From Escherichia coli (GTDB lineage: Bacteria; Pseudomonadota; Gammaproteobacteria; Enterobacterales; Enterobacteriaceae): DNA of 64,000 bases. The notes beneath the pieces were generated by a model. It did no database searches. It saw nothing but the letters and a program-made list of their open reading frames with translations, and was not told the DNA's origin. The stretch lies in NCBI RefSeq assembly GCF_041886205.1, contig NZ_CP169029.1; one strand, given 5' to 3'. Position numbers and translations under genes: made by a program. Below, one piece after another: positions 1,549 through 60,133 of the stretch; position 1 is the first letter of the stretch, and each line of letters begins with the position of its first letter.

Positions 1549-3192
1549 TTAGCGAATGTTAATCAGCGCATCAAAAATCGCGTTTGCCGTCTGCAGAACC
1601 TGCGCATTCGCCAGGTAATACTGCTGAAAACGTTGCAGATTTCCATACTCCTCATCGAGGTTGACACCGGAAATCGACTGCTGCTGATTGGAAAGCTGCG
1701 TCACCACATTACCTTGCGTGGTGCTACTGGTTTTCAACGTCGCGGTTTTATTACCGATATCACTCACTAACGAGGCATAAGCGTCGTTAAAGGATTTCGC
1801 ACCGCCCACCGTTTTACTGTTGCTTTGCAGATCCAGCAGGGCCTGACCGTTGCGGTTGTCGCTATCACCCGCATCTTCTTCGCTCGCCATCGCTATTTTC
1901 GCTTCGTCGGTGATTAATACATCCATGTTGACGATGGCGTCACTTACTGGTTTCAGCGTGAAACTGTCGTTAACGGCAGGCGTTCCTGTAAACGTCAACT
2001 CCAGACCATCAAATGCCACTTTACCGTTGGCATCCGGCGTCACCGTAAAAGTGGTATTGCTGGCAAGGCGGGTGACCTGCCACTGATTATTATCGAACGA
2101 GATTTTGTAATCAGTCGCCAGTACCGCGGAGGCATCAGTTACCGTGGCACCGATCGCAACGTCACCTTTGTTTTTCGTGTTTTGCAGAACCGCGGGCTTA
2201 CCGATAGCAAAGAAATCTTCACCAGCATCGCCGTTGGCATCAAATCCGGCTTTGTGTTGGCTGTTGAAAGCCTCGGCAAATGCCAGCGCCAGTTGTCCAA
2301 GCGTATTACGCGTCTGGTCCAGATCCTGAGAATGGAATGTCAGAATGCCGCCCAGCGACCCGGTATTCAGTAATTTCTCCGGGATCTCAATATTGCCTGC
2401 CGTCCCATCAACGTAAGCGACAGTCGTACGAGAAGGGTCGGCGCTGGAAGGAACTGCCGCCAGTTGCCGCGCCGTACTTCCCTGAACCAGTGAGTAACCA
2501 TTGGCCATCGTGATGTTATAAGTGCCGCCATCCTGAACGCTGACTTCTACACCAACAATCTGGTTTAATTCGCTCACCAGTTGATCGCGTTGATCCAGCA
2601 GATTGTTAGGTGACGCCCCTGCCCCCACGCCTGTCAGGCGGGAGATTTGATCGTTCAGGCTGGCGATTTGTTTAGCGTAATTGTTGATCTGATCAACGCT
2701 GGCACCTATCGCGATATTGACCTGTTTGTCCTGGTCGCGAAGATACTGATCGGTGGTTTTAAACTGATTCACCAACCCTTCTGATTTCCCAATCAGCGCC
2801 TGGCGCGCTGCCGGGTCTTCCGCGTTACTCACCAGCGTTTGCAGGCTGGTGAAGAAATCCTGCATCTGTGTTGCCAGCGAAGAGGTACTGGTGGAGAGCA
2901 TATTGTCGATTTTCGACATCTGCTCATAGCGGGCAGTCAGGCCGCTACTTTGCGTCTGCGCCGCACGTAACTGGTTGGTAATAAACGCATCATACTCACG
3001 CTGCACACCAGAAACGTAGACACCATTGCCAACCCAGCCGCCAGCGCCCAACGTGCTATTGGCCTGCGCCATAATAGTGGTTTGGCGGGTATATCCGGCA
3101 ACGTTATAGCTGGAGATATTATTACTTGCCGTATTTAACGCCGCCTGGGCCGCGTTCAGTCCGCTCATGGCGTTATTAATCAAGCTGGACAT
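1549..3192 (-). CDS. flgK: Flagellar hook-associated protein 1
   Basis: 547-aa ORF starting MSSLINNAMSGLNAAQAALNTASNNISSYNVAGYTRQT; conserved gene order. Confidence 0.95.
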   Translation of the reverse strand: MSSLINNAMSGLNAAQAALNTASNNISSYNVAGYTRQTTIMAQANSTLGAGGWVGNGVYVSGVQREYDAFITNQLRAAQTQSSGLTARYEQMSKIDNMLSTSTSSLATQMQDFFTSLQTLVSNAEDPAARQALIGKSEGLVNQFKTTDQYLRDQDKQVNIAIGASVDQINNYAKQIASLNDQISRLTGVGAGASPNNLLDQRDQLVSELNQIVGVEVSVQDGGTYNITMANGYSLVQGSTARQLAAVPSSADPSRTTVAYVDGTAGNIEIPEKLLNTGSLGGILTFHSQDLDQTRNTLGQLALAFAEAFNSQHKAGFDANGDAGEDFFAIGKPAVLQNTKNKGDVAIGATVTDASAVLATDYKISFDNNQWQVTRLASNTTFTVTPDANGKVAFDGLELTFTGTPAVNDSFTLKPVSDAIVNMDVLITDEAKIAMASEEDAGDSDNRNGQALLDLQSNSKTVGGAKSFNDAYASLVSDIGNKTATLKTSSTTQGNVVTQLSNQQQSISGVNLDEEYGNLQRFQQYYLANAQVLQTANAIFDALINIR

Positions 3193-3225
3193 GGAGGTTC
3201 CTTATAAGCCGTCAATTACAGAGTA

Positions 3226-3252
3226 TTATCGGCAGCGACCCGCCGGACTTGA
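3226..3252 (-). promoter_or_regulatory. Putative sigma-28 (FliA) class III promoter for flgKL
   Basis: On minus strand TCAAGTCC-N11-GCCGATAA; perfect -10 GCCGATAA, partial -35 match; lies in flgJ-flgK intergenic. Confidence 0.45.
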
Positions 3253-3257
3253 GTTAT

Positions 3258-4199
3258 TCAGAACAGATTATCAATGTTCATACTGTAGGTTTTGCTCACC
3301 TTGTCGCTTATCGATTTCATCTGCTGAATCATGTTGGTGAGTTTGCGGGCATAGTGAGGATCGGTAGCATACCCCGCGTCCTGTAGGGCCTGCGCCCCCT
3401 GCTCCGCACTCGCGGCTGTCGTCACGGCTGCGTAGCGCGGGTTACGTGTTAACAGCCCAACGTAATCCGACAATGCTTCCAGATACGAGCTGTAGACCCG
3501 AAACTTCGCTTTTACTTTCTTCGCTTCGCCATTTTCATATTCAGTCGTGGTGATTTCAGTAACTGGCCCTTTCCAGTTGCCAGAGGCTTTGACACCAAAC
3601 AGGTTATAGCTCGGCTCGCCGTTTTCGCGGCGGATTTGCCGTTGCCCCCAACCAGATTCCAGCGCCGCCTGAGCGAGGATCAAATGATGTGGCACACCGC
3701 TTTGCTGGCTTGCCAGTTGGGCGGGCAGCGAGAGTTGCGCGAGGAATGCTTTACTGTCACCCGGCAGCGAATCATCGTAGTTACGTGGCACGGCCTTTTG
3801 CACCAGCTGCGAAAGCGCCTGATTTTGATAACGCACCACGGTTTCGAGCGGGAATTTCATCGGTGCTGCTGGCGTGGACTCCTCTGGCAATGGTTGTTCT
3901 GGCGTCATCTGCTTAACCATCATCTCTGCAAGCCCCAGACCTTTGCCCGCCGTCATCTGTTGGGCAATCTGCTGGTCATACATACTGGTATACAGGCGAG
4001 TGTGCTCGCTGCTGAACAAGCCATCTTTTGGTAAAGCGTCGCGCATGCTTTTCAACATCATCTGCACGAACATCCCTTCCACCTGACGGGCCACCGGACG
4101 GATATTTGCCGCCGGATCTTCGCTCGCTTTCGCCTTTAGTTCGTTGAGTGATTGCGCATCCCAGGCCGCACTTGCCAGTAGTTTGCTGTCGCTGATCAT
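3258..4199 (-). CDS. flgJ: Flagellar peptidoglycan hydrolase (rod assembly / muramidase)
   Basis: Track ORF 3258..4229 trimmed to Met of [14 protein letters not shown]; start overlaps flgI stop by 1 nt (TGATG). Confidence 0.9.
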   Translation of the reverse strand: MISDSKLLASAAWDAQSLNELKAKASEDPAANIRPVARQVEGMFVQMMLKSMRDALPKDGLFSSEHTRLYTSMYDQQIAQQMTAGKGLGLAEMMVKQMTPEQPLPEESTPAAPMKFPLETVVRYQNQALSQLVQKAVPRNYDDSLPGDSKAFLAQLSLPAQLASQQSGVPHHLILAQAALESGWGQRQIRRENGEPSYNLFGVKASGNWKGPVTEITTTEYENGEAKKVKAKFRVYSSYLEALSDYVGLLTRNPRYAAVTTAASAEQGAQALQDAGYATDPHYARKLTNMIQQMKSISDKVSKTYSMNIDNLF

Positions 4200-5299
4200 C
4201 AGATGATTTCCAGTTTTGCCCGCAGACATCCCGCACTTTGCATTGATTGCAAAATAGACATCAGATCCATCGGCGTAGCGCCCAGCGCATTGAGCGCACG
4301 CACCACGTTATTGAGGCTGGCGCTGGAACGTACGCTTTGCAGCGAACCGCCGCTCTGGCGTAAATCGATCTGCGTTTGTGGAGTAACCACAGTCTGTCCA
4401 CCACCAAACGGTGTATCTGGCTGGCTGACATTGGCCTGACGATTAACTGTTACTGAGAGATTTCCCTGCGCTACCGCGCAGCTGTCGAGGGTCACTTCGC
4501 GATTCATCACCACCGAACCGGTGCGCGAGTTAATAACTACTTTAGCGTCCTGCGGGGTGACATTAACCTGCATATTCTGGATATCTGCAAGGAAACGGAC
4601 CTGGGAACTGTTGCCACTCGGTACGCGCACCTGAATAGTCCGCGCATCTAACGCGGTGGCGCTGCCATATCCACGCACGCGGTTGATGGTGTCAGCGATT
4701 TGCTGCGCCATGCTGAAATCTTCGTCGTTAAGTTGCAAATTAAGGGTATTCCCGACGCCAAACTGGCTGGGTAATTCACGTTCAATAACTGCACCATTGG
4801 TGATCCGTCCACCGTTCAGTTGGTTCACCTGAACACTGCTACCGCCAGCGGAGGCTCCTGCGCCGCCAACCAGAATATTGCCCTGCGCCAGCGCATACAC
4901 CTGACTGTCAACGCCCTTAAGCGGTGTCATCAACAATGTGCCGCCACGCAAGCTTTTGGCATTTCCCATGGAAGAAACCACCACATCGATGGTTTGCCCC
5001 TGACGTCCAAACGGAGGAAGTGACGCTGTCACCATTACCGCAGCGACGTTTTTTAGCTGCATATTGGTGCCCGTCGGAACGGTAATTCCCAGCTGTGAGA
5101 GCATGTTATTAAGCGTTTGTGTGGTAAACGGCGTCTGGGTTGTCTGGTCACCGGTGCCATCCAGCCCCACCACCAGACCATAGCCAATCAGTGAGTTTTG
5201 CCTTACCCCCTGAACACTGGTGAGATCGCGAATACGCTCAGCCTGAGCCGCCGTCGTAACCAGTAGAAGAATTAATGCAGAGAGAAATTTAATCACCAC
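4199..5299 (-). CDS. flgI: Flagellar P-ring protein
   Basis: 366-aa ORF with signal peptide ([11 protein letters not shown]); conserved order. Confidence 0.92.
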
Positions 5300-5307
5300 A
5301 GCCTCAC

Positions 5308-6006
5308 TTACATTGGCGACAGGTTAAGGAAGAAACGTTGCAACCAGCCCATATTTTGCGCTTCGTTAATGTAGCCATTGCCTACGTATTCAATGCGCGC
5401 ATCCGCCACCTGAGTAGACGGTACGGTATTGCTGCCGCTGATGGTGCGTGGATTAACCACGCCAGAGAAGCGAATAAATTCGGTACCCTGATTAATGGCA
5501 ATCTGTTTTTCACCCACCACATGCAGGTTGCCGTTGACCAGTACCTGGTCAACCGTCACCGTCAACGTACCGCTAAAGGTATTGCTGGCATTGGCCCCGC
5601 CTTTTCCGTTGAACGTGTTACCACCAGAGGCTTCGACATCGGCACGAGCGTTACCAAACACCCCCTGCAAATAGCGCGGCACAGTATCAAAGCCAAAATT
5701 AGTTTTACCGTCACGGCTGGCATTCGCAGAGGAGCTTTTGCTGGCGCTGACGTTCTCCTGCAACACGATGGTCAGCGTATCGCCAATATTGCGTGGTCGA
5801 CGATCTTCAAACAGCGGTTGATAGCCATAGTTAATCGGCTGAGCAGACTGGAAAATAGAACCGTTGGCAACGGGAGTCGGACCGGGAACCGGTTGTGCAC
5901 TGGTTGCCCCCTGCACCAGCGGCGTGGAGGGTATCCAGGCGCAGCCGGTTAGTGAAAGCACCAACAAGCTGGAAATGGCATAAGTATGCGCAGCGTTTTT
6001 TTGCAT
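5308..6006 (-). CDS. flgH: Flagellar L-ring lipoprotein
   Basis: Track ORF trimmed to [22 protein letters not shown] (lipobox); start codon checked at 6004-6006. Confidence 0.9.
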
Positions 6007-6058
6007 GGCTATCATCTTCAAAAATCAGTAAACCGGTGAACCTGCCACCGGTTATGCC

Positions 6059-6859
<801 letters not shown>

Positions 6860-6886
6860 TTAGTGACAAAGTGCATATGTCTTCTT

Positions 6887-6920
<34 letters not shown>

Positions 6921-7012
6921 AAGTGCTCGCAAAATCGATAAATTGCGATTGCCCCCATAGACCCGATAAACTTGCGCATCGGGCAACTTATACTTGTCAT
7001 GTATCCTTTCAA

Positions 7013-7768
7013 TTAACTCATCGACAGCAGTTGGTTGGCACGGCCTGCGTTATCATCGACGCTGCTGATCACCTTCATCTGCATTTCAAAACGCCGCGCG
7101 CTGGCAATCATGTCGCTCATTGCCGCAACGGCATTGACGTTACTGCCTTCCAGAACCCCCGACATCACACGCAAGGTTGGATCTGCCTGCAGTACAGGCC
7201 CACGCGTGGCCTGGGTTTCTGCGCTTAAACGAAAAATGCCGTCGTCACCGCGCTGCACTTCGCTGCCCGTGGCTTTCACCAGCTTCAGACGCCCCACTGG
7301 CGCAACCGTATTTGCCGGATCGCCCGGATTCAGCGCCGAGATTGTGCCATCGGCAGCAATCGTGATTTCCGCCCCTTCCGGCACAGCAATTGGCCCCGCC
7401 TCGCCTATCACCGGATGCCCCTGAATTGTCAGTTGCCCGGTGGGATCAACCTGAATGCTGCCATTACGCGTATACCCTTCGCTGCCGTCAGCGGTCTGCA
7501 CGGCCAGCCAACCATCCTGCTGCAACGCAACGTCCAGCGGGCGCGAGGTGTAATCCATCTTGCCGGGCGTCATGTCTGCACCCGGCGTTGACGCCGTTAC
7601 CAGCGTGCGCGTGGGCAGTGAAAGCCCTTCCACCGGCACTGCGCGCAAGGCGTTTAACTGCGCGCGAAAACCGGGCGTAGAGGCATTGGCCAGATTACTG
7701 GCGGTTACCGCCTGTTGATTCAACGTCTGGCTGGCTGCTCCCATCGCGGTATAAATTGCGTGATCCAT
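7013..7768 (-). CDS. flgF: Flagellar proximal rod protein
   Basis: 251-aa ORF; rod-protein family; conserved order. Confidence 0.95.
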   Translation of the reverse strand: MDHAIYTAMGAASQTLNQQAVTASNLANASTPGFRAQLNALRAVPVEGLSLPTRTLVTASTPGADMTPGKMDYTSRPLDVALQQDGWLAVQTADGSEGYTRNGSIQVDPTGQLTIQGHPVIGEAGPIAVPEGAEITIAADGTISALNPGDPANTVAPVGRLKLVKATGSEVQRGDDGIFRLSAETQATRGPVLQADPTLRVMSGVLEGSNVNAVAAMSDMIASARRFEMQMKVISSVDDNAGRANQLLSMS

Positions 7769-7787
7769 TGAGCTATCCCGTCAGCGA

Positions 7788-8993
7788 TTAGCGTAAGTTA
7801 ACCAGCGTGTTGAGGATCTGGTCCTGGGTTTTGATGGTCTGGGCGTTAGACTGATAGTTACGCTGGGCAACGATCATATTGACCAGTTCTTTACTGAGAT
7901 CGACGTTGGACGCTTCCAGCGCACCGTTGGTCAGGGTGCCAAAGTTGCCCGTCCCGGCTGTCCCCAACAGCGCCACGCCAGAAGATTGCGTCGCAGACCA
8001 GACGTTGTCGCCTTCGGATGCCAGACCTTCGTTGTTGGCAAAGTTCGCCAGTACAATCTGCCCCAGCAGTTGGGTTTGTTCGTTGGAATAGTTGCCGACA
8101 ACCGTACCGTCATCATTGATTTGATAACTCACCAGATCGCCCGGTTTGTAGCCATTCTGGGTGGTTGCCACAATATTGTTAGCGCCGGTATTTTGCTGCA
8201 TGGAGTTGAGGAAGCTCAGGCTAAACGTGGCGGGTTCTGCACCGTTAATTGCGCCAGTGGTAATATTCTCTGTTGGATTTGACGTCAGAACGCCATTGGC
8301 ATTAAACACCAGCGTCATTGCATGGTCAGCTGTGCCTGTTGGATCACTGCTATCCTGGGTGTAGACCTGCCAGTTATTATCCCCGGTCTTCACAAAGTAC
8401 ACGCTCATGTCATGAGCATTACCCTGACTATCGAAAACAGTCACCGAACCTTTTTTGTTATAGCTATCCGCATTGCTGGCATCAAATGCGTTAACAGAGG
8501 GAAGCGGATCGCTGGAATTCAGGTTGATCTGCATCGACGCCGTGGTGGTAGTTTTCGCTGCCATCAGGGTATTCGGGATCGAAATGTTAGTCGGATTCGC
8601 CCCTTGCTGAATAGTCGGCGGCGTACCGGTTGCCGGGTAACCGGTCAGCTGTAAACCTTGCATATTCACCAGGTTACGGTTTTCATCCAGCTTAAATTGT
8701 CCGTTACGGCTGTAGAACACCGAACCGTTGCTGTCTACCAGACGGAAAAAACCGTTCTGGCTGATAGCAACGTCCAGACCACGCCCGGTGTTGGTGGTCG
8801 TGCCATCGGTAAAGTCCTGAGTGATACCGGCAACTTTTACCCCCAGTCCCACTTTCGAACCGGCAAACATATCGGCAAAAGAGGCCGTGCCTGATTTAAA
8901 GCCGTATGTGGCGGAGTTGGCGATATTGTTGCCAATAACATCGAGGTTGGTGGCGGCAGCGTTTAATCCGCTAACCGCTTGAGAAAAGGCCAT
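7788..8993 (-). CDS. flgE: Flagellar hook protein
   Basis: 401-aa ORF starting MAFSQAVSGLNAAATNLDVIGNNIANS. Confidence 0.95.
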   Translation of the reverse strand: MAFSQAVSGLNAAATNLDVIGNNIANSATYGFKSGTASFADMFAGSKVGLGVKVAGITQDFTDGTTTNTGRGLDVAISQNGFFRLVDSNGSVFYSRNGQFKLDENRNLVNMQGLQLTGYPATGTPPTIQQGANPTNISIPNTLMAAKTTTTASMQINLNSSDPLPSVNAFDASNADSYNKKGSVTVFDSQGNAHDMSVYFVKTGDNNWQVYTQDSSDPTGTADHAMTLVFNANGVLTSNPTENITTGAINGAEPATFSLSFLNSMQQNTGANNIVATTQNGYKPGDLVSYQINDDGTVVGNYSNEQTQLLGQIVLANFANNEGLASEGDNVWSATQSSGVALLGTAGTGNFGTLTNGALEASNVDLSKELVNMIVAQRNYQSNAQTIKTQDQILNTLVNLR

Positions 8994-14762: not shown

Positions 14763-16005
<1,243 letters not shown>

Positions 16006-16240: not shown

Positions 16241-17449
16241 ATGTCCCGCGTGTCGCAGGCGAGGAACCTGGGTAAATATTTCCTGCTCATCGATAATATG
16301 CTGGTCGTGCTGGGGTTCTTTGTTGTCTTCCCGCTGATCTCTATCCGCTTCGTTGATCAAATGGGCTGGGCCGCCGTCATGGTCGGTATTGCCCTCGGCC
16401 TACGCCAGTTTATTCAGCAAGGTCTGGGTATTTTCGGCGGCGCAATTGCCGACCGCTTTGGTGCCAAACCGATGATTGTTACCGGTATGCTGATGCGTGC
16501 CGCCGGATTCGCCACAATGGGTATCGCTCACGAACCGTGGCTACTGTGGTTTTCATGCCTGCTTTCGGGACTCGGCGGCACGTTGTTTGATCCGCCGCGT
16601 TCGGCGCTGGTGGTGAAACTAATCCGTCCACAACAACGTGGTCGTTTTTTCTCGCTGTTGATGATGCAGGACAGTGCCGGTGCGGTCATTGGCGCATTGT
16701 TGGGGAGCTGGCTGTTGCAATACGACTTTCGCCTGGTCTGCGCCACAGGGGCAGTTTTGTTTGTGCTGTGTGCAGCGTTCAATGCGTGGTTGTTACCGGC
16801 ATGGAAACTCTCCACCGTACGCACGCCCGTTCGCGAAGGCATGACCCGCGTGATGCGCGACAAGCGTTTTGTCACCTATGTCCTGACGCTGGCGGGTTAC
16901 TACATGCTGGCTGTACAAGTGATGCTGATGCTGCCAATTATGGTCAACGACGTGGCGGGCGCGCCCTCTGCCGTTAAATGGATGTATGCCATTGAAGCGT
17001 GTCTGTCGTTAACGTTGCTCTATCCTATCGCCCGCTGGAGTGAAAAGCATTTTCGTCTGGAACACCGGTTGATGGCTGGGCTGTTGATAATGTCATTAAG
17101 CATGATGCCGGTGGGCATGGTCAGCGGCCTGCAACAACTTTTCACCCTGATTTGTCTGTTTTATATCGGGTCGATCATTGCCGAGCCTGCGCGTGAAACC
17201 TTAAGTGCTTCGCTGGCGGACGCAAGAGCTCGCGGCAGCTATATGGGGTTTAGCCGTCTGGGTCTGGCGATTGGTGGCGCTATTGGTTATATCGGTGGCG
17301 GCTGGCTGTTTGACCTGGGCAAATCGGCGCACCAGCCAGAGCTTCCGTGGATGATGCTGGGAATTATTGGCATCTTCACTTTCCTTGCGCTGGGTTGGCA
17401 GTTTAGTCAGAAACGCGCCGCGCGTCGTTTGCTGGAACGCGACGCCTGA
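16241..17449 (+). CDS. mdtH: MFS multidrug efflux transporter
   Basis: Track ORF trimmed to [19 protein letters not shown] (402 aa); ATG checked at 16241. Confidence 0.9.
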
Positions 17450-17512
17450 TTTGATACTCCCCCCTGACTCCTCCATACTGAAAGTGAACTGACAGCCAAA
17501 TGGAGGAGTCAC

Positions 17513-43916: not shown

Positions 43917-44004
43917 GGTGAGGTGTCCGAGTGGCTGAAGGAGCACGCCTGGAAAGTGTGTATACGGCAACGTATCGGGGGTTCGAATCCCCCCCTCACC
44001 GCCA
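43917..44004 (+). tRNA. serX: tRNA-Ser (GGA anticodon)
   Basis: 88-nt GGTGAGGTGTCCGAGTGGCTGAAGG...GGTTCGAATCCCCCCCTCACCGCCA with class II long variable arm and T-loop GGTTCGAATCC. Confidence 0.95.
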
Positions 44005-55270: not shown

Positions 55271-55487
55271 CAGCTTTTCCTTACAGAGGGTGAATAAAAA
55301 AGCCGGTACCCACAAATGTGGATACCGGCAGGTACAAAACAGCATGGTCAGATAAAGTGGTTTTTCCCGGGCATAAATGCTTCCCCTCTCTCATCCGCCA
55401 GAGAAGTATCAGTCCGTTGTGTGCAATTCCGTTCTGCATGATGAAGAGATTCAGCTGCCTTTTCGCAGACCATTAACCACTATAAAC

Positions 55488-55523
55488 GATCGATAGTAAC
55501 GATCAATACCTGTTTTATCGATC
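55488..55523. promoter_or_regulatory. Three-GATC Dam/OxyR phase-variation switch of agn43
   Basis: GATC at 55488, 55501 and 55520 within ...AACGATCGATAGTAACGATCAATACCTGTTTTATCGATCG..., ~220-250 bp upstream of the Ag43 start. Confidence 0.7.
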
Positions 55524-55642
55524 GTTTTATTCTATTAATAACAAGGCGGCCACGCAAGAGAAACAGGAGGGGTATGAGGTGTTTGTGTCATGTTTTCAGT
55601 TGGTTAACGCAATGTAATCAGGCATTTCCCCTGGCAGAGTGT

Positions 55643-56515: not shown

Positions 56516-56870
56516 ACATGTATTCCCGGTGAAAAAAGACAAAACCCCGCGCACCGGAAAGGTGGCGGGGGATTCACAACGATAATATCTGTCTGAAATT
56601 ATTTGGAATGCAGGTATATGCAGCTAATTTGTATCGGCTCATTAGTACAGAACTAAACCTCATCTGACAGTCCGCTCTATGTCATAAGCGGTCCTTATAT
56701 ACACTAAGGTAGAATTGTCTTCTGGGGCGGGGTTGTCCAAATAAAATCCTAAAGTATCTAATTTATACGTAGTGATTCAGTATCATGTGCTACGTGTTGA
56801 ATTATAAATTTAGTTTAAATTGGTTGTTTAGATATCTGCATGATAACTATCAGACCATTGTGGAGTATTT

Positions 56871-57389
56871 ATGACGATTCTTGAAGAAATGGAAGCAGAA
56901 GCATGGCATATCCTAACAACCATCTATACGTATCAGCGGTTGATGGAAGGCCTTACTAATAGCAGTACAAGATATGAGCTTGCCAATCAGTTGGTAGCCC
57001 TCAATGCATTGTTGGAAATGTTGGTGATCCGTTTAGCGCGTCTTGCGGATAAAAGGAAAGATGTGAGATCTGTATCAATGTTTTTGAAACGCGGCTCGTA
57101 TTCTGCTTCACCAGAGGCTGTGAAATTGGCAGCTGAAAAGTTCCTTGCACTCACAGAACCAGTATTAAAGATTAGGCATGAGCAGATTGCACATATGAAG
57201 CCCGGCACACTCAGTAGCTTCGAGCCTCGAGAACTTCCAAATGAAGCTCTGAGAGCAACTGAGGCTCTAATCGATCTCATTGACATTGCCAGAGGTCACC
57301 CTCAGTCTTACACATACCGAGTTGGCTCACAGGAGCCTGCCATTAATTTGAGAGCTTCAGTAGAGACTAGCGAACTAGTTAAAATCTAA
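56871..57389 (+). CDS. Hypothetical protein, 172 aa; possible HEPN-like (R-x5-H motif)
   Basis: ATG at 56871 preceded by GGAG; visibly AT-rich; helix-like composition; RHEQIAH motif near residue 100. Confidence 0.55.
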   Translation: MTILEEMEAEAWHILTTIYTYQRLMEGLTNSSTRYELANQLVALNALLEMLVIRLARLADKRKDVRSVSMFLKRGSYSASPEAVKLAAEKFLALTEPVLKIRHEQIAHMKPGTLSSFEPRELPNEALRATEALIDLIDIARGHPQSYTYRVGSQEPAINLRASVETSELVKI

Positions 57390-57411
57390 TAATTCACTCA
57401 AGTCTATGCTA

Positions 57412-57439
57412 CTTTGCCGAGTTGCTTTACTCGGCAAAG
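57412..57439. terminator. Bidirectional hairpin between the convergent orphan genes
   Basis: CTTTGCCGAG-TTGCTTTA-CTCGGCAAAG, perfect 10-bp stem. Confidence 0.5.
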
Positions 57440-57525
57440 TAATTAGCTCCCCGTTAATAACAGATCCGGCAGCCCCTCAACCTTTTTGCTTAAGTGAATA
57501 TATTTTCACAATATTTCCTACTGCT

Positions 57526-58905
57526 TCAGTCATAAAATTTATTTTTGCCTTTTGACGTCATGAGAAGGAAATATGAAGGGTGACTCTTTATTTCTGAAGA
57601 GTGGCTTGTTATACTAAAAACCTCTTTTAGAATCGTAAAGGCTCCTGTAGCCAACGACACTGGATTTGGTGCCCCAATAAAACCTATCAATGATGGCGCA
57701 ATGTTAAGAAAAAGTTCTTTATTACTTTTCCGCTTATAGGTCTGTATTTTTTGCTCAATATCGGTCAATCCTTCATCCCATATGCGCTCGACAAAATGCT
57801 GATTTATCAGCTGCCTCTTATATGGGTCACTTTCTGCTTCTATGTCATACGCAGCTTCACGTAGCACAGAGCGGAAGGCATTAAAACTCGATTCGTAGTC
57901 AGTTCTAATTTTGTAGAGTTCACTTGGAGTAAGCCCCTCTAGAAATGGAACGTCAATAGAGAGTTTAACCCTCTGAACTTCATTCCTTTGATCCAGTTTA
58001 CGAAGAATTTCTCCATGAAATGGGCAATATGCGCCCAGGGACGCTCTGCATGAATGCGCTTGGTTAAGATCAGTAATAAGGTTTTTATAATGAAAGAGAA
58101 CTGTACGATTTTTTGCTCCCTGCACCCACCGTTCATAACTTTTTTTTCCGCTATGCTTTCCCATGACAATTTCCATAGACATGGTACCATCATCATTATC
58201 AATGGCATTATTTATATGTTGATACATATATCCATTTGTATACGAGCTTTCGCAGCCTTTAATTTTCAACATAATTTCATTCGTTAAAACATTTCTGTTT
58301 AACAACCGAATTTTATTTGTGTTGCCCAGACGTTCTATATTCTGTACGGATAGTCTACTTTCATACAGACGGGCAATATTAGGGGGGAGATATCGAAATA
58401 GGAAATTAGTATCAGAGTTATCTTCTAAAATTCCATTAGCTCTCTCCGAATCTTTAATAGAGGATTCTCTTCGTACAAAAACGATAAACTCTCCACGGAT
58501 AAGATCAAAGTTTTCTTTAGCAAACCTGATAAACCTAGCAATTTCCTTCCTGAGATGTTCAACCTTCTCTTTGCTATCGCTTTCAATAAATTTTTCAACT
58601 ACGTTTTCTGATAGATTTACCCTGTATCGTAGGCTCAATGAATATAGAACGTCATCAAGAATGACTCTGTCCATTGAAAACAAACCACTCTTATACCTTT
58701 CAATATTACGATTCCCCGCCATGTAAACATTCAGCCGGGACTCCTGTACAGAATTTGTTTGTTCGATAATGAATGAATCTATCCTTTTATTATATTCAGC
58801 TAATTCAACTAGCAATTCGTTCAATCCGATATTTTCATATTCCTGTTCTAAAAGTCGATCAACCCAAAAAAGGCTTTCTGTGAGCGCATAGAGGTTGTTG
58901 TACAT
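57526..58905 (-). CDS. Hypothetical protein, 459 aa, unknown function
   Basis: Long ORF in the most AT-rich stretch of the window; K/E/N/I-rich; no Walker A or nuclease motif recognised. Confidence 0.7.
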   Translation of the reverse strand: MYNNLYALTESLFWVDRLLEQEYENIGLNELLVELAEYNKRIDSFIIEQTNSVQESRLNVYMAGNRNIERYKSGLFSMDRVILDDVLYSLSLRYRVNLSENVVEKFIESDSKEKVEHLRKEIARFIRFAKENFDLIRGEFIVFVRRESSIKDSERANGILEDNSDTNFLFRYLPPNIARLYESRLSVQNIERLGNTNKIRLLNRNVLTNEIMLKIKGCESSYTNGYMYQHINNAIDNDDGTMSMEIVMGKHSGKKSYERWVQGAKNRTVLFHYKNLITDLNQAHSCRASLGAYCPFHGEILRKLDQRNEVQRVKLSIDVPFLEGLTPSELYKIRTDYESSFNAFRSVLREAAYDIEAESDPYKRQLINQHFVERIWDEGLTDIEQKIQTYKRKSNKELFLNIAPSLIGFIGAPNPVSLATGAFTILKEVFSITSHSSEIKSHPSYFLLMTSKGKNKFYD

Positions 58906-59917
58906 ACTAGCTCCTTTTTACCAAGCTTCAGTACTGTGTTCTCAAGATTACTCAGTGGTTTTCACACAGAGTGCACTCTCATTTTACATTTAAATGTACT
59001 TCCTAGCATCCTGCTGTTAGTGCCGGATTACAGCACTTATCAACTGTATATTTAGAAAACAAACTGCGCATAATCCTAGTGAGTTGTTATGTCCGCTCCT
59101 CGCTCAAAGCAGACCATTCGCTCAGTTAACGCATCAGTGTCGTGCTAAAAGTAGACGTGGTTAACAACAATGTGAGTTAATCAACGGAGAGCAGGTCAAC
59201 TCTAACCTGTATCAAAAAAACAAATGTGTCACAAAGATGCCGCATGCCTTAATTTGAGTATAATTGAGACGGAAGTAGACGGTTTATGGCTAAATATTGT
59301 TGATATATAGCTATTTGAAGAGTTGTAGCGCAAGTGTATAGCCCAAACTAATAACGCTACCCCTTACCTTTGACGCCTCTTATCAAAGAGCTGCGATGAT
59401 GCACAGCCCGCACGAGGCAATATTCGCACAAGAATCAGGTTCAGAAATAACCTGCTCTGGCATGGTGGGGAGAGTATCACTGATCAGGCTTTCGTTAAGA
59501 TGCGGCGGGATGAGGCCGTGTTGCGTGAGTTGCAGCAGTACAAGATCGCCCGCAGAGGGTAAGCTACAGCGCGAGATCCTAGGTTTCTATCAGGGATTCG
59601 GCAAAGCGGGCGCAGTTGTCGACCAAGGCGGTGAAATCTATAGTGGCATTATAAGGGAACGAACAATAGATCGAGTAAATCGCAGTCAGGGACAAGGATT
59701 GTAGTCTATAGAGAAGTCTCCTGTAACGGTTTTCAGGAGGCTAATTCCGACGCCTGATTTTGCAGGCGCGGAGGGAGAGGATACTGCGACCATTAATCCG
59801 CCACAAAGCATTTACGTGCATAAATCACGCAGTCAGATCCGACTCTCACTGTAGTTCTTGAACCTGATACCACATTTAGCTAATTTAGCTAACTTATCCA
59901 GTATACCAGTGGTTGCC

Positions 59918-60094
59918 ATGAATATGAATGAAGACGAGATTTATCGTCATATCCGGCAGGCACTTTCCAGTGCGCCGCGTAACCAGTACACCGTCGAGCT
60001 GCACCTGCAAATGATTAAATATGCCGACGAACTGGAACACATTACGGCAAAAGCCTTTTGCGAAGGCACCGGTCTGAATACCGATCTGCTGTAA
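59918..60094 (+). CDS. Small hypothetical ORF, 58 aa, directly upstream of hsdM
   Basis: ATG at 59918 (track used upstream TTG at 59858); MNMNEDEIYRHIRQALSSAPRNQYTVELHLQMIKYADELEHITAKAFCEGTGLNTDLL. Confidence 0.35.
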   Translation: MNMNEDEIYRHIRQALSSAPRNQYTVELHLQMIKYADELEHITAKAFCEGTGLNTDLL

Positions 60095-60133
60095 CCGACT
60101 TACGGCACATTATCGCGCAAAACGAGATATTTA

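Follow-up and report, generated by a model that had tools for sequence, protein, structure and literature searches.

An unannotated kilobase in a CP4-like island of Escherichia coli is probably a mosaic of a cassette boundary and a decayed P4-type immunity module

The kilobase that separates a gene for a 459-aa hypothetical protein from the hsdM operon in the E. coli DNA analyzed here (a 64,000-nt stretch, hereafter the window) is probably a mosaic of unrelated modules, lying at a junction inside a CP4-like island at tRNA-Ser(GGA) and including a probable operator, an exchange-point repeat and a decayed P4-type immunity module. All parts of this gap are of known kinds, and it contains neither a hidden gene nor a new RNA. 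The features that we assigned to the gap, together with a partner element to its left, are as follows.

56670-56692, plus strand: partner unit B (GTCCGCTCTATGTCATAAGCGGT) at the left edge of the cargo, by the GTPase gene and outside the gap
58906-59088, minus strand: 5′ regulatory region of the 459-aa gene, which travels with the gene into a lambdoid prophage
58985-58998, strand not applicable: perfect 14-bp palindrome TACATTTAAATGTA, a candidate operator 80 nt upstream of the 459-aa start codon
59089-59114, plus strand: unit A (ATGTCCGCTCCTCGCTCAAAGCAGAC) at the right edge of cargo 56694-59088; island homology starts at 59086-59092
59137-59230, plus strand: degenerate unit B (59137-59156) and conserved tail (GTTAACAAC..GTTAATCAACGGAGAGCAGGTCA..), from alignments to Klebsiella pneumoniae plasmid OW969918 and the E24377A prophage (locus L011)
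59231-59394, strand not applicable: spacer found only in the same island type (~248 genomes), the least conserved and fastest-evolving part
59395-59714, minus strand: pseudogene corresponding to the first ~113 codons of a 153-156-aa family (tblastn E-values down to 3e-17; nucleotide alignment to positions 8310-7840 of an intact ST131-type locus, L002)
59715-59777, minus strand: two-hairpin leader, probably homologous to the P4 PLE leader (seqA/a1b1 type), fused directly to the second target and a Shine-Dalgarno sequence
59778-59806, minus strand: putative PLE-type promoter with -35 TTGTGG (59806-59801), a 17-nt spacer and -10 TATCCT (59783-59778)
59807-59917, plus strand: remaining divergent intergenic DNA ahead of the HTH-like gene and hsdM operon, with 93.7-94.6% identity to three other islands

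The gap and its island setting

Several chromosomes, of O157 and other strains, match 58800-60200 with 100% identity. An identical O157 genome is annotated in RefSeq with, in order, the cah autotransporter, a GTPase, the 172-aa and 459-aa hypothetical proteins, a gap, an HTH-like pseudogene, hsdM, hsdS, darT, darG and hsdR, and nothing is called between 58905, where the 459-aa gene ends, and ~59924. This agrees with the preliminary description of the sequence, in which no credible ORF was seen in 58906-59917. The longest ORF of the gap (59396-59704, plus strand, 102 aa), which the same description judged not to resemble a protein, runs antisense to the minus-strand pseudogene, and that judgment holds. 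The only tRNA gene in the 64-kb window, tRNA-Ser(GGA), lies at 43917-44004, and the island begins directly after it. An IS102 RNA (Rfam, 71 bits, above gathering) was also found on the minus strand at 55289-55525, where it lies between cah and the GTPase gene; it is present in strain NCTC86 as well.

Between islands, the gap is 85-95% identical, versus 98.6-99.6% for hsdM of the same islands, a difference that fits relaxed constraint on the gap. The block 59086-59917 is retained beside the restriction-modification (RM) operon in about 246-248 genomes, and this retention could reflect a residual function, e.g., as a promoter or insulator, instead of pure decay. The spacer at 59231-59394 showed 84.8% identity with 14 gapped bases when compared to the island of strain KBN10P04869 (L014), where hsdM is 98.6% identical. 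No homolog of the spacer was found outside the same island type in the E. coli genomes, phages and plasmids searched, a six-frame protein search gave no match, and it had no similarity to the downstream genes of intact P4-type elements. These ~160 nt would seem to be decaying DNA without an assignable origin.

A promoter and terminator scan of the gap returned only weak consensus matches near chance level. On the hsdM side, a candidate promoter (TTGAAC-17-TAATTT, 59858-59886, plus strand) was spotted by eye and had been missed by the scan. The adjoining HTH-like gene (59918-60094, plus strand) has lost 69 nt in frame, between two short direct repeats (C[T/C]GGTCTGAA), when scored against the intact, 79-aa copies of NCTC86 and KBN10P04869; the deletion leaves a 58-aa ORF that RefSeq calls a pseudogene.

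The cargo gene and its upstream palindrome

A 1632-nt alignment with 88.8% identity joins window positions 57479-59110 to 5001-6598 of the lambdoid prophage of E. coli E24377A, spanning from 47 nt beyond the stop codon of the 459-aa gene to unit A. Since the homology reaches unit A, the upstream region of the gene is part of the cassette. The palindrome, described previously as perfect, 14 bp long and ~80 bp upstream of the 459-aa gene, was recovered at that distance; it occurs once in the window even when one mismatch is allowed, with zero occurrences expected from shuffled sequences. It is also identical in the prophage (L011 6473-6486) despite a ~34-nt indel and substitutions around it. On the minus strand, we read by eye a candidate -10 hexamer (TAAAAT, 58986-58981) and found a Shine-Dalgarno sequence (AGGAG) at 58915-58911. 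The palindrome abuts the hexamer on the coding strand and would thus sit in the promoter spacer. With the promoter itself a putative assignment, the palindrome probably acts as an operator, and the earlier proposal of this role is plausible given its perfect preservation upstream of the 89%-identical prophage copy.

The 172-aa and 459-aa genes (56871-58905) sit where related islands have other cargo, and next to them is a type I RM system into which DarTG is embedded. Their products had no match in PHROGs, NCBIfam or PADLOC; the two could be an uncharacterized defense-type pair. Between these convergent genes lies a hairpin with a perfect 11-bp stem (CTTTGCCGAGT/ACTCGGCAAAG, 57412-57439) that is likely a bidirectional terminator within the cassette.

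A repeat at the edge of the cargo cassette

Pattern searches yielded the consensus TCCGCT-yyTCGCTCAm-AGCGGAC for unit A and GTCCGCT-yTGTGCCArr-AGCGGA for unit B. Both can be written as (G)TCCGCT-N10-AGCGGAC with either an A-type (TCGCTCA) or a B-type (TGTGCCA) center, and units of this form are present in the window, where unit A at 59092 has one mismatch to its consensus and unit B at 56670 has four. Together they bracket the 172-aa and 459-aa gene cargo. The islands that share the block to the right of unit A differ in the genes on its left: NCTC86 has a 314-aa gene, E2348/69 has two small genes, and KBN10P04869 has a ParA-family gene with two hypothetical genes after it. A unit B also occupies the left-edge position in NCTC86 (L003 6832) and KBN10P04869 (L014 4241). 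In islands with four different cargos, homology always breaks at 59086-59092. The FI-proximal edge of the Z/fun cargo in a P2 variant carries the 26 nt of 59089-59114 with 100% identity, related repeat sequence occurs in many plasmids, and the repeat tail is common to the Klebsiella plasmid OW969918 and the E24377A prophage. The outer flank of unit B at 56670-56692 (acagaactaaacctcatctgaca), between the GTPase and 172-aa genes, resembles the flank that follows gene G in P2-like phages.

The repeat brackets cargo cassettes in P2 (fun(Z)), in P2-like and lambdoid prophages, in CP4-like islands and in plasmids. In reference P2, a B unit (15335-15357) lies 60 nt past gene G and an A unit (17433-17455) lies ~100 nt upstream of the pF activator site, with fun(Z) between them. 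A scan of viral contigs for the units matched at least 120 stretches, and among the matches listed, at least 300 units were catalogued in at least 131 loci. When neighboring units were paired, again among the matches listed, 97 of 169 pairs had the order B, cargo, A (at a median distance of 1.4 kb) and another 47 were A-B composites within 50 nt; 164 pairs were concordant and five discordant. By these orientations, the arrays read B-cargo-A·B-cargo-A. One such array of single-gene cassettes, including a homolog of the 459-aa gene, was seen at 2800-8900 of the E24377A prophage locus, where the first three cassettes have A-B composites between them and the last composite stands before a GIY-YIG gene that is followed by an HNH endonuclease gene.

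Two further observations concern the reading frames that run into the repeat. In plasmid OW969918 (L008), a transposase-like ORF (4112-4615) ends exactly at the start of the repeat tail and takes its last eight codons from the repeat. Many A units, not all, are preceded by an ATG that opens a short frame (in the window, 59089-59148, MSAPRSKQTIRSVNASVSC followed by a stop); this ATG is probably coincidental.

Taken as a whole, the boundary repeat (unit A, degenerate unit B and tail) would mark where an exchangeable cargo cassette ends on the right, with the B unit at 56670 as its left edge, and the A/B units are most likely crossover points for cargo exchange, as judged from the sequence comparisons above. 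On either side of fun lie inverted repeats that were proposed to mediate site-specific exchange (Nilsson et al., 2004, as cited in PMC8987985). Going by their position as conveyed in that citation, the inverted repeats of Nilsson, Karlsson and Haggard-Ljungquist (2004) would be the A/B units. The unit sequences are the same in P2-like coliphages and in the window, and the cargo is bracketed alike (56670 and 59092). The two settings differ in that the host element here is a CP4-like chromosomal island, the cargo is the pair of 172-aa and 459-aa genes, and the copy on the right is complete, a composite that includes a degenerate B unit and tail.

A broader proposal, which we put forward tentatively as one of several possible explanations, is that an unrecognized, integron-like but integrase-free cassette system uses the A/B repeat as its recombination site, and that in this system single cargo or defense genes in B...A units are shuffled among P2-like phages, lambdoid prophages, CP4/P4-like islands and plasmids. 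Integron attC sites and the pdif sites of Acinetobacter are similar in that arrays of single- or few-gene cassettes are split by ~65-nt imperfect palindromes with fixed mismatches and constant polarity. The A/B repeat, by contrast, has no RYYYAAC/GTTRRRY core sites, no XerC/D-like 11-6-11 layout and no linked integrase, and the genes of A/B cassettes occur in either orientation. An outright assignment as an attC site was rejected because the core sites are absent from a 36-sequence alignment and no IntI integrase lies beside the arrays in annotated loci.

We regard it as rather unlikely that the repeat is instead a decayed miniature transposable element (MITE), or a terminator or insulator shared by 'moron' cassettes, with its position at junctions a by-product. 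Such an origin would suit the symmetry of the repeat, as both unit types are dyad-symmetric and the A-B composite is an imperfect palindrome of ~65 nt, and the truncation of the transposase ORF in the Klebsiella plasmid is insertion-like. It would likewise suit several null results: no recombinase or integrase gene was linked to the repeat arrays in annotated loci, the A and B hairpins did not covary beyond shuffled controls, and the long A:B hairpin covaried worse than shuffles. An Rfam search of the boundary repeat returned no family at E ≤ 1. In the long A:B helix, two positions are mismatched in 36 of 36 sequences, and many copies have a fixed C·A mismatch. A MITE is harder to reconcile with the strict B-cargo-A polarity of the concordant pairs counted above, and with composites that stand between every cassette, unlike scattered insertions. 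The stems have no T-run behind them and would make poor intrinsic terminators. Finally, against either explanation, the homology of islands breaks no more than 6 nt from the start of unit A. We keep cargo exchange as the preferred explanation of the repeat.

A probable truncated P4-type immunity leader

On the minus strand, an Rfam scan of 58000-60500 matched 59708-59782 to both c4-a1b1 (RF03163; 34.1 bits, E = 3e-6) and isrK (RF01394; 34.7 bits, E = 3e-5). Both scores are under the respective gathering scores of 46.7 and 50; P4 itself, at 44.1 bits, is also under gathering for c4-a1b1. The predicted fold of the leader was better than all 200 shuffles (z-score, -3.3). C4 RNA (RF01695) had no match in the gap at E ≤ 1 and none in the whole window at its gathering threshold. 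The preliminary description had allowed for a structured ncRNA or regulatory leader and had proposed a covariance search; RNA-type structure is indeed present, at sub-threshold scores, and the gap is not one leader but a junction of unrelated modules.

The P4 immunity region comprises the PLE promoter, seqA, the timm terminator, the CI RNA with seqB, seqC and kil. Where the system is intact, processing of the same leader yields the antisense RNA, which silences the operon by pairing with both targets. The region belongs to the same Rfam families as the c4 antisense RNA of phages P1 and P7 with its a1b1/a2b2 targets. We found that 59410-59789 is ~81% identical to ST131-type genomes, where it lies beneath 'ash family protein' and 'hypothetical protein' annotations. 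The ST131-type locus L002 carries, all on the same strand, c4-a1b1, isrK with its terminator (68 bits), C4 RNA (71.8 bits, above gathering) and a 156-aa ORF, with the second target between the C4 RNA and this first gene. In P4, the same three Rfam matches occur in the same order (C4, 74.9 bits), which makes the window element a probable homolog of the P4 PLE leader. The promoter that precedes the first hairpin is TTGCCT-18-TATAGT in P4, TTGCCG-17-TATCTT in L002 and TTGCTG-17-TATTGT in a further locus, L004, and the candidate at 59778-59806 has the geometry and hexamers common to these three.

Intact elements contain the two-part target twice, and target and C4 loop co-vary: TTAGCC/GTTACAGG with CCTGTAACG/GGCTAA in L002, TTGGAAC/GTTACAGG with GTTCCAA in L004, and GTGAGAAC/TTCACAGG with CCTGTGAA/TTCTCAC in P4. 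These co-varying sets (P4, L016 8350-8760; L002 8250-8600; L004 7700-8060) amount to three 'immunity specificities', and the orphan target of the window is of the L002 type. The window and all ~246 genomes sharing the block have a single hybrid target (UUAGCC ... AAACCGUUACAGGAGAC), which C4/CI RNA loops with CCUGUAACG and AGGCUAA would be expected to match. Directly behind the first hairpins come AAACCGTTACAGGAGAC and the former start codon. Rather than a second target over the ribosome-binding site of an intact first gene, there is one hybrid target followed by a gene without a start codon and with frameshifts and stops. The 13-mer AAACCGTTACAGG occurs once in the window, versus two copies that flank the missing 180 nt in L002.

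These comparisons suggest that a deletion between two AAACCGTTACAGG repeats took away the terminator, half of the second target and the gene for the C4/CI antisense RNA; we infer from parsimony only that the C4 indel reflects loss in the window and not insertion elsewhere. The PLE-like promoter and upstream target hairpins would now be joined to the downstream target and ribosome-binding site, with what was presumably the first regulated gene following as a pseudogene. The switch would have no function in cis, and the promoter would at most make a non-coding transcript toward the 459-aa gene, one that could still be recognized by a matching C4 RNA supplied in trans.

Beyond the promoter hexamers and their spacing, the likeness to P4 extends to a first (GCGCCUGCAAAAUCAGGCG) and a second hairpin that bear target sequence, to a second target that overlaps the ribosome-binding site of the first gene, and to order and strand. 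The differences are that the window lacks the antisense RNA gene and terminator, that its two targets are merged into one, that the first gene, a pseudogene in the window, belongs to the 153-156-aa family and is unrelated to the 65-aa ORF of P4, and that no P4 replication or helper-exploitation genes lie near the element. The 65-aa ORF at the first-gene position of P4 we take to be kil, after Forti et al. (1999). As for IsrK, an Hfq-binding RNA of Salmonella, the two 5′ hairpins align to model positions 1-49, and the difference, besides the score, lies at the 3′ end, where 8 nt stand in place of the terminator hairpin; hence, no discrete sRNA end is expected.

Could the P4-type promoter have been co-opted, so that the gap encodes a working IsrK/C4-type RNA or a cis leader controlling the 459-aa gene? 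The promoter and both hairpins are the best-conserved non-coding parts of the gap (~93-97%), their fold is better than that of any shuffle, the 459-aa gene is on the same strand ~800 nt downstream, the isrK-type Rho-independent terminator of intact loci is gone, and the scan found one weak terminator-like site (59454-59436, minus strand) in between. However, the isrK match falls well short of gathering and has lost the terminator hairpin of the model, the C4 gene is absent, and the 459-aa gene retains a conserved 5′ region of its own in a prophage without such a leader. Islands that share the leader also have different cargo to the left of the repeat, and the leader is thus not tied to the 459-aa gene. 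Co-option is, on balance, quite improbable, and we favor a leader truncated by deletion.

A pseudogene on the minus strand

The preliminary description had noted a gene remnant in the gap, read as the C-terminal tail of a real protein in the plus frame of 59374-59562, and had proposed a six-frame search for such remnants. A remnant was found by this means, on the other strand: tblastn with the 153-156-aa family matched the window on the minus strand only, from 59714 to 59395 in two frames. Nucleotide alignment with the L002 gene showed that the start codon has changed from ATG to ATA, with a 1-nt insertion; further lesions are a second 1-nt insertion, a pair of in-frame TAG codons and a deletion of 11 nt, and homology is lost after ~codon 113, over the 3′ third. 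Homologs of the 156-aa L002 protein number 608 across the Enterobacterales, almost all of 153-157 aa. The family is always located downstream of C4 RNA, and ORF calls that are extended upstream pick up Pfam PF10554. No match to the 156-aa protein was found in Pfam, PHROGs, NCBIfam or PADLOC, and kinship with a P4 protein was rejected, as it has no similarity to ORF151, the old cI ORF or the 65-aa ORF. In intact loci, the order is an Ash-annotated ORF, the 153-aa gene, a Ner-like HTH_35 gene and an XRE gene, with integrases further on.

The plus-frame translation (...ITDQAFVKMRRDEAVLRELQQYKIARRG, then a stop) was reproduced, and a database search with this peptide had one match, to a single partial hypothetical E. 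coli protein. Because the family matches and the lesions map to the minus frame, the supposed tail is the antisense frame of the pseudogene. The original version, i.e., a plus-strand remnant (tail ...QQYKIARRG and a stop) and a palindromic operator, with the rest an uncharacterized structured RNA or leader for hsdM, can claim a frame open over 62 codons and a palindrome that is real and conserved, but is very hard to credit given one spurious match versus a 608-member family on the opposite strand, lesions that fit the minus-strand frame cleanly, and Rfam matches on the minus strand, directed away from hsdM.

Implications

Annotation of intact loci bears on how such leaders are recognized. ORFs called 'ash family protein' (PF10554) overlap the C4/CI RNA gene, e.g., 8288-8446 versus C4 RNA at 8362-8450 in L002. 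In P4 (L016), the old 'cI gene product' ORF (8168-8584) encloses the C4 match (8420-8507), and PF10554 matches it with E = 8e-16 over the RNA-containing stretch. The protein family may be largely a translation of an RNA gene. With Ash annotations sitting on the C4/CI RNA gene, a truncated leader is easily misread as a pseudogene or overlooked.

The immunity relic marks the end, now decayed, of a second P4-like element that fused into the island, and would aid reconstruction of how composite islands form. The cassette-boundary repeat is, in our opinion, the most interesting piece of the gap. The terms hairpin, palindrome and inverted repeat have no occurrences in recent hotspot papers (PMC9122126 and a 2026 preprint), and their silence makes the repeat deserving of follow-up. 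The A/B repeats would provide a concrete sequence address for the swapping of cargo between phages, satellite-like islands and plasmids, and, if the proposed cassette system is real, cassette shuffling would explain why 'defense hotspots' in unrelated mobile elements share cargo.
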